4,949 bases of DNA from a virus (taxonomy: Duplodnaviria; Heunggongvirae; Uroviricota; Caudoviricetes), in IMG/VR virus record IMGVR_UViG_2529292882_000009; one strand, written 5' to 3'. This document shows positions 1-4,896 of this stretch, piece after piece. The notes below the pieces were generated by a model. That model searched no databases. It was not told the origin of the DNA and worked only from the letters and a program-made list of their open reading frames with translations. A program made the translations under genes and the position numbers. Positions within the stretch are counted from its first letter, which is position 1. Each line of letters begins with the position of its first letter.

Positions 1-52
1 AATCCGCCTTAAATAACAGTTTGTTGCAGTTTTTACAGCGAATTGATTTCAT
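1..52 (-). CDS. com: N-terminal 17 codons (MKSIRCKNCNKLLFKAD) of a small Cys-rich zinc-finger protein resembling phage Mu Com, the translational activator of mom; gene continues beyond the window start
   Basis: Reverse complement of 1..52 reads ATG AAA TCA ATT CGC TGT AAA AAC TGC AAC AAA CTG TTA TTT AAG GCG GAT. AGGAGG Shine-Dalgarno (rc of 57..62) lies about 4 nt upstream of the ATG (rc of 50..52). The CxxC motif at residues 6-9 and the position immediately downstream of the invertase match the Mu gin-com-mom layout as I recall it. Too short for the ORF track; partial. Confidence 0.5.
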   Translation of the reverse strand, partial: MKSIRCKNCNKLLFKAD

Positions 53-134
53 CTCACCTCCTTTGCATCAATTCGCCACTATCTTAAAAAACATCGTGGG
101 TTAAGTGTGGTTATTAGGGCATAATCGATCTGTA
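53..134 (-). promoter_or_regulatory. Promoter/leader region for the Com-like gene (mom-operon-type, activator-dependent weak promoter)
   Basis: On the minus strand: candidate -10 TAAGAT (rc of 81..86), preceded by a T6 tract (rc of 86..91), candidate weak -35 ACCACA (rc of 106..111) with a suboptimal 19-bp spacer, then AGGAGG and ATG. Promoter elements are assigned by eye and by recollection of the Mu mom promoter (poor -35, T-tract in spacer); not experimentally anchored. Confidence 0.4.
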
Positions 135-161
135 TTACCGATCGATTTGATTGATTCGATC
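127..161. promoter_or_regulatory. Cluster of three GATC (Dam methylation) sites within 35 bp, upstream of the mom-type promoter and overlapping the invertase 3' end
   Basis: GATC at 127..130, 140..143 and 158..161, each inside an ATCGAT or CGATCG palindrome. The last two lie inside the final codons of the invertase (stop at 135..137). In Mu, three clustered GATC sites upstream of the mom promoter are the methylation-sensitive OxyR (MomR) repression site (established knowledge, recalled). Confidence 0.5.
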
Positions 162-728
162 GTCGTTTTCTATATGCGTTCGTTTCGCAGGGTGTTTTTT
201 ATACAGAGTTGACAGGGCCACATCGTAGATCAATGCGACCTGCTTGCGGGGGATTCCTTGTGCTAATAAACGCCCGGCCTGCTCCCACTCTGCTTTGGTT
301 AGTTTAGGTGGTCGCCCACCAATACGGCCTTTATTTCTGGCGGCAGCAAGTCCAGCCATCGTTCGCTCGATAATTAGTTCTCGTTCCATTTCAGCCAGAG
401 CACCCATAACGTGGAAGAAAAAACGCCCCATTGGAGAAGATGTGTCTATGTTGTCGGTCAGACTGCGAAAATTAATCCCTCGCTCCCGTAGTTCCCCGAC
501 GAGAGAAATCAGATGTTTCATACTTCGCCCGAGGCGATCCAGTTTCCAGACAACCAGCGTGTCACCTTTTTGAAGGCGCTTTAAAGCGCGTTTTAATCCC
601 GGTCGGTCTGTCTTTGTCCCGCTTAATTTATCTTCAAATATTTGTTCACATCCTGCACAAACAAGAGCGTTTCGTTGCAGGTCTGTATTCTGGTCATTTG
701 TTGATACCCTTATATAGCCAATCAGCAC
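135..728 (-). CDS. gin: Serine-recombinase DNA invertase, Gin/Pin/Cin/Hin family (resolvase-like catalytic domain plus C-terminal HTH)
   Basis: 197-aa ORF; N-terminus MLIGYIRVSTNDQNTDLQRNAL contains the catalytic-serine motif (YIRVST) typical of Gin/Pin/Cin/Hin invertases; C-terminal GRPPK...AIYDVALSTLYKK region matches the HTH DNA-binding domain. Start is GTG (rc of 726..728) with GGGAG Shine-Dalgarno (rc of 736..740) 7 nt upstream. Symbol gin is chosen because of the Mu-like neighbours (Com-like gene, GATC cluster); a Pin- or Cin-type orthologue cannot be excluded without alignment. Confidence 0.95.
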   Translation of the reverse strand: MLIGYIRVSTNDQNTDLQRNALVCAGCEQIFEDKLSGTKTDRPGLKRALKRLQKGDTLVVWKLDRLGRSMKHLISLVGELRERGINFRSLTDNIDTSSPMGRFFFHVMGALAEMERELIIERTMAGLAAARNKGRIGGRPPKLTKAEWEQAGRLLAQGIPRKQVALIYDVALSTLYKKHPAKRTHIENDDRINQIDR

Positions 729-781
729 TCTGGATCTCCCGTTTAAAAGCGCAAATCATGCCATGCAGGCCGGAAACAGCC

Positions 782-1753
782 ATTATCCAAAACCTCGGTT
801 TGCAGGAAACGGTAAATCAGGCTTCTGGCGCATTACAGAAAAAACAGAACGGTGCAGATATTCCGGGAAAAGATACCTTCACCAAAAATATTGGTGCCTG
901 CCGCGCATATAGCGCATGGCTGAATATTGGTGGCGATAGTCAGGTCTGGACAACCGCGCAATTTATTTCGTGGCTGGAGAGTCAGGGAGCATTTAACCAT
1001 CCTTACTGGATGTGCAAAGGCTCATGGGCTTATGCAAATAATAAGGTCATTACAGATACAGGTTGCGGAAATATTTGTCTTGCAGGTGCTGTGGTGGAAG
1101 TTATTGGCACTCGCGGCGCAATGACCATACGCGTTACTACGCCGAGCACGTCCAGCGGTGGCGGAATTACTAACGCTCAATTCACTTATATTAATCATGG
1201 TGATGCTTATGCTCCTGGCTGGCGAAGAGACTACAACACGAAAAACCAGCAGCCTGCATTTGCTTTAGGGCAAACAGGAAGCAGGGTTGCAAATGATAAA
1301 GCTGTTGGCTGGAACTGGAATAGCGGCGTTTATGATGCAGATATCAGTGGCGCATCGACATTAATCCTCCACTTCAATATGAATGCGGGGAGTTGCCCTG
1401 CTGTACAGTTCCGCGTGAATTACAGGAACGGCGGTATTTTTTATCGTTCAGCGCGTGATGGTTATGGATTTGAGGCTAACTGGTCAGAGTTTTACACCAC
1501 GACCCGCAAACCCTCTGCGGGAGATGTTGGTGCATACACGCAGGCAGAATGTAACTCAAGGTTTATTACAGGTATTCGCCTTGGCGGTCTGTCATCTGTT
1601 CAGACATGGAATGGTCCCGGCTGGTCTGACAGGTCAGGTTATGTCGTTACGGGTTCAGTTAACGGAAACCGTGATGAATTAATTGATACAACTCAGGCAA
1701 GGCCAATTCAGTATTGCATTAATGGAACGTGGTATAACGCGGGGAGTATTTAA
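782..1753 (+). CDS. Silent alternative tail-fibre C-terminal variable cassette (S'-like); no start of its own, would be fused to the constant fibre N-terminus after inversion
   Basis: The ORF track extends this frame back to 614, but 614..781 overlaps the invertase 5' end and has no fibre-like sequence. Real homology starts in the inverted repeat, where IQNLGLQETVN (782..814) is identical to the same peptide in the expressed fibre. Gly/Asn/Trp/Tyr-rich fibre-tip composition; ends RPIQYCINGTWYNAGSI, similar to the expressed fibre end. Stop TAA 1751..1753. Confidence 0.8.
   Translation: MIQNLGLQETVNQASGALQKKQNGADIPGKDTFTKNIGACRAYSAWLNIGGDSQVWTTAQFISWLESQGAFNHPYWMCKGSWAYANNKVITDTGCGNICLAGAVVEVIGTRGAMTIRVTTPSTSSGGGITNAQFTYINHGDAYAPGWRRDYNTKNQQPAFALGQTGSRVANDKAVGWNWNSGVYDADISGASTLILHFNMNAGSCPAVQFRVNYRNGGIFYRSARDGYGFEANWSEFYTTTRKPSAGDVGAYTQAECNSRFITGIRLGGLSSVQTWNGPGWSDRSGYVVTGSVNGNRDELIDTTQARPIQYCINGTWYNAGSI
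783..816. repeat. Left inverted repeat of the invertible segment (gix-type recombination site)
   Basis: ttatccaaaacctcggtttgcaggaaacggtaaa is 33/34 identical to the reverse complement of 3825..3858. The first 26 bp have gix/hix architecture: two 12-bp half-sites (783..794, 797..808) around a 2-bp core TC (795..796). Confidence 0.9.
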
Positions 1754-1755
1754 TT

Positions 1756-2289
1756 ATGATGCACTTAAAAAATATTACTGCTGGCAACCCTAAGACAAAA
1801 GAGCAATACCAGCTAACGAAACAATTTAACATCAAATGGCTTTATACAGAGGATGGGAAAAACTGGTATGAGGAACAAAAGAACTTTCAGCCTGATACGT
1901 TGAAAATGGTCTATGACCACAACGACGTTATTATTTGTATTGAAAAGGATGTTTCAGCAATTAATCCAGAAGGCGCAAGCGTCGTTGAGGTTCCTGATAT
2001 TACAGCAAATCGCCGGGCTGATATTTCGGGTAAATGGATGTTCAAAGATGGCGTAGTGATAAAGCGAACTTATACCGAGGAGGAACAGAGGCAGCAGGCA
2101 GAGAATGAAAAGCAAAGCCTGTTGCAACTTGTCAGGGATAAAACCCAGCTATGGGACTCACAGCTACGGCTGGGAATCATTTCCGACGAGAATAAACAAA
2201 AATTAACTGAGTGGATGCTCTATGCGCAGAAAGTCGAATCTACAGACACCTCCAGCCTGCCAGTAACATTTCCCGAACAACCTGAATGA
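1756..2289 (+). CDS. Alternative tail-fibre assembly protein / chaperone (U'-like), currently in the silent orientation
   Basis: 177 aa; starts 2 nt after the S' cassette stop; first ~125 aa closely resemble the 2318..2848 product ([22 protein letters not shown] vs [23 protein letters not shown]; shared [18 protein letters not shown]), with a divergent C-terminal third. Family assignment by position and paralogy. Confidence 0.8.
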   Translation: MMHLKNITAGNPKTKEQYQLTKQFNIKWLYTEDGKNWYEEQKNFQPDTLKMVYDHNDVIICIEKDVSAINPEGASVVEVPDITANRRADISGKWMFKDGVVIKRTYTEEEQRQQAENEKQSLLQLVRDKTQLWDSQLRLGIISDENKQKLTEWMLYAQKVESTDTSSLPVTFPEQPE

Positions 2290-2292
2290 GAC

Positions 2293-2312
2293 AAGGCCCG
2301 ATAGCGGGCCTT
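2293..2312. terminator. Hairpin between the convergent chaperone genes; candidate bidirectional terminator
   Basis: aaggcccg (2293..2300), loop atag, cgggcctt (2305..2312): perfect 8-bp GC-rich stem. Followed on the plus strand by aattttta (2313..2320); flanks are less T-rich for the minus strand. Confidence 0.5.
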
Positions 2313-2317
2313 AATTT

Positions 2318-2848
2318 TTATTCAGGCTTTTGTGGCCATTCTGGCTTTGCCGTATCCACACGGCTGACCAGAACACTGTAGCGTTCCCATGACTCCAGTC
2401 GTGCGCGTTCCTCATCCGTCGCCATATTCAGTCTGACAGCGCGTTCCAGTGGCTGAATAACGTTTTCTGCTTCGGAAAGTAACGCGGCCTTTTGTGATTC
2501 GGCCTGTTGTTGTTGCTCGTCTGCCGTATAAATCCGTTTAACCACAGCTCCGTCCTTAAACATCCACTTCCCTGAATCATCGGCACGACGATTGGCTGTT
2601 ATATCTGGAATCTCAACGACGCTAAAGCCTTCGGGATTAAGCGTTGAGGCATCTTTGGTTATGGCAACAATAATATTATTTTCGTCGTATACAATCTTTA
2701 TGGTGTCGTCCTGAAAGTTATTTACTTCTTCATACCAGTTTTTACCGTCTTCGGACCATAACCAGATAACATCAAAATTCTTTGTTAGCTGATATTGTTC
2801 TTTCGTTTTAGGATTTCCAGACTTAATATTTTTTAAATGCTGCATCAT
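2318..2848 (-). CDS. Tail-fibre assembly protein / chaperone (U-like), in the expressed orientation
   Basis: 176 aa; tandem ATG start (rc of 2843..2848) directly abuts the fibre stop codon (TAA, rc of 2849..2851); AGGTG Shine-Dalgarno upstream; paralogous to the 1756..2289 product. Confidence 0.85.
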
Positions 2849-4354
2849 TTACACCTGTGCGACGTTATACCATGTGCCATTGATGTATTTTTGTATTGGC
2901 CTGAAGATGGCTTCATCATCGCCATCTACTTCACCAATGATTCTTAATCCGGTAATTGCGTGTCCGGCTTTTTCATAACGACCACCACGCGCCATCAATT
3001 GAACAACACGTGTGCCAAGTCGGACATCTCTCACATAGCGTGAGTCAAAATTGCCATAATTGCCGGGAATAACTTGCGCACCACAAAGCCAGTTACCGTT
3101 ATTATCCATGTACGCCTGACCATCGGTGCCATTGGCTGTCCTTGAGTTATTAATCATGTAGATGCCAAATTGCTTGTTCCCCAGTCCACCTATCATGAAC
3201 TTTCGGTCGGCGTGATTCTGGCGAAGTAACGCCTGAGCGCTATCAGTGTTAACTATATTTTTCCCAAAGATAGCGTTGTTATCGCGCATCTGAATCCACA
3301 TACCATTACTGCTGTTAATAGCAAAACGGTCTGAAAGTGTCTCCCCTGAAACATTAAGACCACGCCCCATCGAAACAGCGCCAGTAGCGTTATTAATCCA
3401 TAATGGCCTTAATCCGTTATAAGTCCCCATGTTGTCACCGGAGTTTGTCAACATGAAGTATGTATTTGAACCATCATTACGAATAAAGAATCCGTAATTA
3501 CCATAAGCAATACGTAGGCCGTTTGCTGATTTTGATATGACTTCGCCATTTACAATGGCATTGACAAGAACATACAAAGCATCCCATTTAAGATTCATCA
3601 GGTCTTTTGTTGTGGTGCTCTGGCGGCTTCTCCATTTGAAATATTCATTGCCGTTGTCGCCTGTTTCAAACCACATGTATGAATCAGTGTCGCTGTCGGC
3701 ATCATTTTTAAATCCAATCTTTGCCCAGTCAGTATTCCGAATCCAGGCAAGGATTGAGTCGTTTTCAAAAGTAAGTCCGCCGGACAAGGTATCGCCTGTC
3801 TTTTGAACGGCGTTACCAGCCTTGTTTACCGTTTCCTGTAAACCGAGGTTTTGGATAAACAGCGGCTTATTGGGAATATCTGCTCCGTTCCGGTCTTTTG
3901 CCAGACGGGCATTGGCATTATCCATCGCAATTTTCACCGCTTTTGCGGTGGCTGCCAGCGTTTCACTGAGGCTGTCAGTGGCACTGGTTAGCTGAACGAG
4001 TCCTTTTTTGTTCAGGCTGGCATCATAGATATCCAGATTTTCACGTGCTGTACGCTGTGCTGATGCCCCGGCAATTTTAATTTCGCTGAGGTTATTTTTT
4101 ATCAGCAGCGCGTTATTGCTCATAATGGCTTTAATGGACAGTGCAAGCTGGTTTAATTTTGTTTTATCCGGTTGAATACCGGCTTCTTCCAGCGTGTTTA
4201 ATAACTCCGCCTGCACAATATTAAACCAGTCCATGCCGGGCCATGTGATAACATTATTCCCGTCACCTTCTGAAAACCAGCGAACGATAGCACTACGCTG
4301 GGCGGATACGGGCGGCATGACGGTTACGCCGCTGTCGTTATCAATATAAAACAT
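2849..4354 (-). CDS. Tail-fibre protein (S-like): constant N-terminal part (4354..3859) fused across the right inverted repeat to the currently expressed variable C-terminal part (3824..2849)
   Basis: 501 aa; GGAG Shine-Dalgarno upstream; start ATG (rc of 4352..4354) overlaps the upstream gene stop by 1 nt (TAATG). The inverted repeat encodes FIQNLGLQETVN in frame. C-terminal two-thirds are rich in N, G, W, Y as expected for a receptor-binding tip; ends RPIQKYINGTWYNVAQV. Confidence 0.9.
   Translation of the reverse strand: MFYIDNDSGVTVMPPVSAQRSAIVRWFSEGDGNNVITWPGMDWFNIVQAELLNTLEEAGIQPDKTKLNQLALSIKAIMSNNALLIKNNLSEIKIAGASAQRTARENLDIYDASLNKKGLVQLTSATDSLSETLAATAKAVKIAMDNANARLAKDRNGADIPNKPLFIQNLGLQETVNKAGNAVQKTGDTLSGGLTFENDSILAWIRNTDWAKIGFKNDADSDTDSYMWFETGDNGNEYFKWRSRQSTTTKDLMNLKWDALYVLVNAIVNGEVISKSANGLRIAYGNYGFFIRNDGSNTYFMLTNSGDNMGTYNGLRPLWINNATGAVSMGRGLNVSGETLSDRFAINSSNGMWIQMRDNNAIFGKNIVNTDSAQALLRQNHADRKFMIGGLGNKQFGIYMINNSRTANGTDGQAYMDNNGNWLCGAQVIPGNYGNFDSRYVRDVRLGTRVVQLMARGGRYEKAGHAITGLRIIGEVDGDDEAIFRPIQKYINGTWYNVAQV
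3825..3858. repeat. Right inverted repeat of the invertible segment (gix-type recombination site), inside the tail-fibre coding sequence
   Basis: tttaccgtttcctgtaaaccgaggttttggataa; its reverse complement differs from 783..816 by one base (A vs G, partner of position 802). Core dinucleotide at 3845..3846 (GA on plus, TC on minus) matches the left core. Confidence 0.9.
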
Positions 4355-4896
4355 TAGTTATCTCCGTCATGGTAAACAAATTTATAAATCTGATGCGCGG
4401 GTTTATATTTCTCCAGTAAACATTCCAGCGCACCCGATTCATAAACACGTAACGGCGTCAGAACATTATCCAGCACCGTTGCGTTGCGATAATTTTTAAT
4501 ACCGTAAATATTGACCTGCGTAACCCACTGGCCTTCTGTGGAATCCGTCAGCCTGACGGTAAAACCGTACTGCGCAGCCAGCCATTCATAAAAGCGCCTA
4601 CTCAGATTGCCGGTCATACGCATTTTATTCGCGGCAGCCCGCTGGCGTTCGGACAGGGTGCCGTTTTCGCTGGTACAGTCCGGCAACCCCAGAAATGATT
4701 CCCACTCACCCAGATACCAGCGGGATGTGGACGGGAAACGCTCCCGCAGCATTTGCCGCGCATCATCCGCCGCAGTGGCAATCACGTCGCTGATGGCCTG
4801 CGCCAGCGCAGATAATTTGCTGTCGGGGCTTTTATTCCAGGCAAGCCCTGACGGCAGTAATTGCAGAAAGGCCGTCTGATAGGGTGTTACAGCCAT
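4354..4896 (-). CDS. Phage tail/baseplate protein immediately upstream of the tail fibre (Mu gp48 / P2 gpI / YmfQ-like by position)
   Basis: 180-aa ORF (MAVTPYQTAFLQLLPSGLAWNKSPDS...); GGGGA Shine-Dalgarno 7 nt upstream; start ATG (rc of 4894..4896) directly follows the upstream gene stop (TGA, rc of 4897..4899). Function is inferred from gene order in Mu-like tail modules; I cannot confirm the family from the sequence alone. Confidence 0.6.
   Translation of the reverse strand: MAVTPYQTAFLQLLPSGLAWNKSPDSKLSALAQAISDVIATAADDARQMLRERFPSTSRWYLGEWESFLGLPDCTSENGTLSERQRAAANKMRMTGNLSRRFYEWLAAQYGFTVRLTDSTEGQWVTQVNIYGIKNYRNATVLDNVLTPLRVYESGALECLLEKYKPAHQIYKFVYHDGDN

Follow-up and report, generated by a model that had tools for sequence, protein, structure and literature searches.

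Knowledge of the bacteriophage Mu G segment goes back to 1980-84, and the segment is the founding example of gene-altering programmed inversions. In Mu the S/U genes are expressed in the G(+) orientation and S'/U' in G(-) (PMC4406740; PMC11915804), and the N-terminus of the fibre docks to gp48, which bears a docking loop (PMC11915804). The coding region of gin in this phage contains three Fis sites, and a divergent promoter, momP2, overlaps Pmom (PMC3378877). More generally, in many loci with gene-altering inversions one of the two target coding sequences lacks the transcription start through the first inverted repeat (PMC9881135). The locus described here displays the same asymmetry between gene and pseudogene and does not differ from these systems in principle.

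Organization of the locus

The stretch of DNA analysed here, referred to below as the window, is 4949 nt long. End-to-end alignment of the window gave 96.2% identity to phage D108 and 96.1% to phage Mu, and Mu-like prophages of E. coli could be aligned with it as well. When the Mu and D108 records are read in the orientation of the window, com/mom is leftmost and is followed by gin on the minus strand, S'/U' on the plus strand, and U/S and gp48 on the minus strand. The list of open reading frames found in the window has the same layout (Table 1). Gene order, the 34-bp inverted repeats with gix sites, the position of the crossover and the division of the fibre genes into Sc, Sv and Sv' are all shared with the Mu/D108 G segment, at 96% nucleotide identity over the window. 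Apart from the divergence of about 4%, the window differs from that segment in an S protein of 501 aa rather than 504 and in a single G/A difference between its two gix sites. The 3' end of gin and the gin leader in the window resemble those of D108 and PhiR68_1 and not those of Mu.

The C segments of P1, P7 and D6 were 92-96% identical to the interior of the window (825-3840), and their records likewise annotate Sv, U, U' and Sv'. The invertase, the constant part of the fibre and the outside sequences are not common to the window and the P1/P7 C segment with Cin at the megablast level.

A serine invertase of the Gin/Cin/Pin/Hin class, with a resolvase catalytic domain and a C-terminal helix-turn-helix, adjoins the segment. 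The constant N-terminal part of the fibre is encoded outside the segment, and inside it are two opposed C-terminal cassettes, each with its own chaperone. The window thus almost certainly represents the host-range switch, or G segment, of a prophage of the Mu/D108 type in the S/U-expressing orientation. The gp48-type gene precedes S and belongs to the same late transcription unit. At the position equivalent to the hairpin between the convergent chaperone genes, the D108 record annotates rho-independent terminators on both strands.

Table 1. Features located in the 4949-nt window.
Feature	Position	Strand	Observations
gin, serine DNA invertase (197 aa, GTG start)	135..728	-	Resolvase E=7e-51, HTH_7 E=2e-17; GGAG 7 nt 5' of the start; named Gin at this position in Mu and D108
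Very probably spurious 5' extension, codons 1-56 of the 379-aa ORF	614..781	+	
gix site, gin-proximal	783..808	.	TTATCCAAAACC TC GGTTTGCAGGAA; crossover dinucleotide 795-796; inverted repeat
Sv', start-less and predicted silent cassette, alternative C-terminal receptor-binding part of the fibre	797..1753	+	
U', assembly chaperone partnering Sv'	1756..2289	+	Caudo_TAP E=2e-36; GGAG 9 nt upstream; U' in Mu/D108
Hairpin terminator between the convergent U' and U	2293..2312	.	8-pair stem, then a T-run
U, assembly chaperone of the presently expressed fibre	2318..2848	-	Caudo_TAP E=5e-37; Mu/D108 annotation
S, expressed tail fibre (501 aa)	2849..4354	-	GGAG 7 nt upstream; Phage_fiber_2 and Gp34_trimer domains
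Sv, variable part of S	2849-3844	-	Inside the G segment
gix site, Sc side, within the S gene	3833..3858	.	Crossover dinucleotide 3845-3846; inverted-repeat partner
Sc, constant part of S	3847-4354	-	Outside the G segment
Mu gp48-type baseplate wedge protein	4354..4896	-	Phage_Mu_Gp48 domain; Mu annotation

Inversion between the gix sites

An inverted repeat of 34 nt with one mismatch, at 802, was found at 783-816 and 3825-3858, set within a looser repeat of 58 nt. By our own estimate, the chance expectation of a 34-nt inverted repeat with one mismatch in 4.9 kb is about 1e-11. The repeat includes a 26-bp site of the gix type, TTATCCAAAACC-TC-GGTTT(G/A)CAGGAA. The two sites are inverted relative to each other and identical at 25 of 26 positions, with 3.05 kb between the crossover points. 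In the Mu record the boundary of the G segment corresponds to 795/796, i.e. to the central dinucleotide of gix, and one boundary falls inside gene S. The single difference between the sites is a G at 802 versus an A (on the equivalent strand) at 3839. It is synonymous (TTG/TTA, Leu) and could lower the frequency of inversion.

The arrangement suggests the following course of events. Gin would exchange the strands at the central dinucleotide of each gix site and thereby flip 797-3844. Gene S, on the minus strand, has its start at 4354, outside the segment, and its constant part, which encodes the docking N-terminus of the fibre, runs into the gix site on that side; the flip would join Sc in frame to Sv', with U' behind it. 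Judging from the Mu literature, transcription of either S/U or S'/U' would come only from the late promoter upstream of S, and inversion would be assisted by Fis and an enhancer inside gin.

Inversion was modelled in silico over 797-3844. Exchange at the centres of the sites kept the reading frame and gave a full-length alternative fibre, an Sc+Sv' fusion of 488 aa in which residues 1-177 are those of S and the rest corresponds to residues 58-379 of the plus-strand ORF. This fusion was 99% identical to a natural protein of 488 aa (P0014). In length and register it also equalled the solved Mu(-) fibre, PDB 8ju3 ("Tail fiber protein S, Tail fiber protein S'").

The inverted isomer was also found among deposited sequences. 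A 1200-nt query of the predicted junction was 100% identical to E. coli PEC422, and the whole inverted window differed from that genome by 3 SNPs in 4949 nt. The G and A variants of the gix sites (position 802) are on swapped sides in PEC422, as expected if the crossover took place to the left of 802. For E. coli W, each of the two orientations is represented by a deposited assembly (NC_017664 versus NC_017635). Together, the PEC422 and E. coli W entries demonstrate that both orientations exist in nature, and the modelled fusion and these natural isomers support the proposal of the initial annotation that the cassette is joined to the fibre by inversion.

In the expressed Sc+Sv' fusion of PEC422 a TGG codon is changed to TGA at the equivalent of 1483, and PGAP flags an 'internal stop' there. 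The window keeps an intact TGG at 1483.

It could be argued that the cassette is a dead remnant, i.e. that inversion no longer works in this prophage and that Sv' is never expressed. The gix sites do differ at 802, a similar single-base difference has been proposed as the cause of non-inversion in SfMu (PMC4406740), and the near-identical PEC422 prophage carries the nonsense mutation in Sv'. However, gin, Sv' and U' are all intact ORFs in the window, and the mismatch is six bases away from the crossover dinucleotide as well as synonymous. Moreover, the swapped site variants in PEC422 imply that two sites already differing have undergone inversion at least once. A dead remnant is therefore very improbable, and a silent cassette within a G segment is the reading that we retain.

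Several further inverted repeats were noted. One of 26 nt (839-864 versus 3873-3898, 85%) codes for the fibre motif NGADIP(G/N)K. It is located within the segment on the gin side and outside the segment on the Sc side, so that the S' fusion carries the motif twice, about 27 residues apart. A second (1700-1739 versus 2863-2902, 80%) covers the last ~13 codons of Sv'/Sv (RPIQ..INGTWYN), and a third of ~350 nt (1752-2102 versus 2499-2849, 70%) covers the 5' two-thirds of U'/U. These terminal repeats indicate that the two cassettes are related at the fibre tip and the chaperone end and not in the receptor-binding middle.

The outer half-site of the gin-proximal gix contains, on the minus strand at 782-787, a GATAAT resembling a -10 element, 54 nt upstream of the gin start. 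The -35 region is poor by eye. This element may be a candidate weak promoter of gin; a consensus promoter scan upstream of gin found none.

The 379-codon frame and its 5' extension

On the plus strand Sv' forms part of an ORF of 379 aa (614..1753) that starts with TTG. Its frame is free of stops from 476 onwards, the upstream stop being at 473-475. Codons 1-38 (614-728) are antisense to gin and codons 39-56 (729-781) correspond to the 53-nt gin leader, in agreement with the initial annotation, which had placed the first 56 codons over the invertase start and the region upstream of it. Fibre-like sequence had been said to begin exactly at the peptide IQNLGLQETVN, common to the expressed fibre. 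The peptide is indeed shared, as residues 58-68 of the ORF and 167-177 of S, and its correct position is 785..817; the range originally assigned to it, 782..814, is one codon off and translates to IIQNLGLQETV.

It is very nearly certain that the 379-codon frame consists of a silent, start-less Sv' cassette and a chance open stretch that leads back into gin. In the present orientation Sv' would have no start codon, ribosome-binding site or fibre N-terminus of its own, and the frame would simply be stop-free for another 102 codons leftward, through the gin leader and the antisense strand of gin. As a result, an ORF finder takes the first TTG (614) as the start and lists a 'gene' of 379 aa. From the sequence we infer that Sv' is silent in this orientation.

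The homology data fit this division of the frame. No Pfam or PHROGs family was detected in residues 1-56 or in the full open stretch of 102 codons, and matches to fibre families in the same two collections begin at about residue 47-58 of the ORF. Residues 165-488 of PDB 8ju3 align with residues 56-379 at roughly 95% identity, in line with the predicted onset of fibre similarity at residue ~57. Residues 1-56 alone, compared with 5.8 billion proteins in a word-index search that is not exhaustive (P0001 was missed though it shares the segment), gave zero fibre matches. The sole matches were four hypothetical ORFs of E. coli, 39-92 aa in length, in the same position antisense to gin. The absence of tail-fibre homology from residues 1..56, as anticipated from the sequence alone, was thus observed with Pfam, PHROGs and the large protein set.

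An apparent homology of residues 21-56 to P2-type fibres of 656 aa (BLAST coverage 89-95%) was rejected: the alignments start at residue 21 or 41 with almost no identities there and are carried by the strong match downstream.

Signals for translation were sought at each candidate start. No Shine-Dalgarno sequence precedes TTG614, TTG701, ATG758 or TTG800, and TTG698 has only an AGGT 15 nt upstream. By contrast, a GGAG is found 7-9 nt ahead of the start in S, in U' and in gin. The consensus scan predicted no sigma-70-like promoter on the plus strand to the left of the cassette. The initial annotation had denied the unit any credible promoter or ribosome-binding site. The second half of this statement holds, and the first, although in line with the scan, has to be softened in view of momP2 of Mu. 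An equivalent of this promoter would point along the plus strand toward the gin antisense region and the cassette, which makes plus-strand transcription conceivable; a credible translation start is absent.

A small hairpin, GCGCTTTAAAGCGC, is present at 576-589 on the plus strand and is followed by a T-rich run. It lies just upstream of TTG614, inside the gin antisense region, and is a weak terminator-like match only.

The length of the open stretch was compared with chance expectation. Finding 56 or more open codons ahead of the repeat had a probability of 0.09 from base composition and 0.21 from synonymous reshuffling of gin; an open stretch of 56 codons before the repeat is unremarkable. 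For the full 102 open codons the probability was between 0.012 (lower) and 0.036 (upper), and a stop-free stretch of this length is somewhat longer than typical.

The extension was also followed in relatives. In D108, C is replaced by T at the position corresponding to 788, which gives an in-frame TAA (788-790) within the outer gix half-site, directly before the crossover point; this TAA is not present in the window. Gin-proximal sites of the D108 type read TTATCTAAAACC (D108 1083-1108). The same TAA was found in six IMG/VR loci with Gin 97-98% identical. Because the TAA lies in the outer half-site, the frame antisense to gin cannot enter Sv' in D108 and these six loci. More distant invertases, with 75-81% identity to Gin, occur in 67 loci; here just 2-21 codons of the frame are open upstream of the site, compared with 100-400 codons downstream of it in nearly all of these loci. 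Stops in the antisense frame also occur in the slightly more diverged Gin genes P0123 and P0124. The short frames in the distant loci and the TAA of the D108 type indicate that the long extension is peculiar to a few close relatives. The original view that the 379-aa ORF is artefactual at its 5' end is therefore upheld by the lack of fibre homology, of a Shine-Dalgarno sequence and of conservation of residues 1-56.

Within the extension, the gin leader (729-782) is the stretch least conserved against Mu, with 83% identity versus 96-97% in the flanks. The same nucleotides are 98-100% identical to D108 and PhiR68_1, and the flanks are 96-97% identical to all three phages. The region 729-782 is, to judge by these identities, a small mosaic patch.

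These results bear on the possibility that 614..1753 or 758..1753 is a genuine stand-alone gene whose product, in the present orientation, would be a free C-terminal piece of the fibre. The frame is open, PGAP has annotated it as a CDS of 379 aa (KO11FL) or 331 aa (E. coli W, PhiR68_1), and in Mu the divergent momP2 is upstream on the same strand. Against this, the frame has neither a start with a ribosome-binding site nor a predicted plus-strand promoter, its first 56 residues are not fibre-like and have no homologues other than spurious short ORFs, and it is not kept in relatives, being stopped just before the crossover point in D108 and closed within 2-21 codons in more distant systems. A protein made from it would be without the N-terminus encoded by Sc, through which the fibre docks to gp48, and in other genomes the same cassette is labelled 'incomplete, missing N-terminus' by PGAP itself. 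We consider a stand-alone gene even less probable than a dead cassette.

The weakest proposal, that the 102-codon stretch antisense to gin (476-781) is a small overlapping gene, can hardly be credited: the stretch exceeds the length mostly expected by chance (P about 0.01-0.04) and has no stop in Mu, D108, PhiR68_1 and those E. coli prophages that were examined, but these relatives are only about 4% diverged, so that a kept open frame says little, no family or homologue is found except the four hypothetical ORF calls, a Shine-Dalgarno sequence is lacking, and both substitutions in 614-728 are non-synonymous in its frame, while in gin the same two are third-position or conservative (I/V).

Returning to the silent Sv' cassette, we note a variant that has next to no likelihood, namely that the 102-codon open frame and momP2 allow a free receptor-binding fragment to be translated at a low level in the 'wrong' orientation. 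If this were true, such a fragment could serve in the lysogen as, for example, a decoy or an exclusion factor.

Annotation of the cassette in databases

The cassette is annotated differently from record to record. KO11FL carries a CDS of 379 aa (WP_244401891.1) that overlaps gin by 115 nt; this is the very mis-annotation against which the initial reading of the sequence had warned, in stating that a stand-alone gene at 614..1753 would be wrong. In E. coli W and PhiR68_1 a CDS of 331 aa begins with the ATG at 758, and in the D108 record a CDS starts at the equivalent of 860. A pseudogene missing its N-terminus, from the equivalent of 785, is given in JCKP02, in PEC422 and in the second assembly of E. 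coli W. The Mu record uses a misc_feature for the cassette, at the equivalent of 796-1753 (Sv').

The artefactual forms have been replicated, with clusters of 101 member sequences for the 379-aa form and 45 for the 331-aa form. RefSeq thus treats one silent cassette in three incompatible ways, as a 379-aa CDS, a 331-aa CDS and a pseudogene. A rule that recognises invertase-adjacent, repeat-bounded cassettes would remove the false proteins. The ORF represents a classical element of Mu-type G segments, the silent Sv' cassette, and as such is already known; the practical value of the present analysis is in annotation only, the biology being textbook.

No RNA family was detected when the whole window was scanned with Rfam. 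The left end of the window (1-134) contains the start of com (ATG at 52, minus strand) and the Pmom region. Three GATC sequences, at 127, 140 and 158, are clustered at the 3' end of gin, which fits the Dam-regulated mom control region of Mu.
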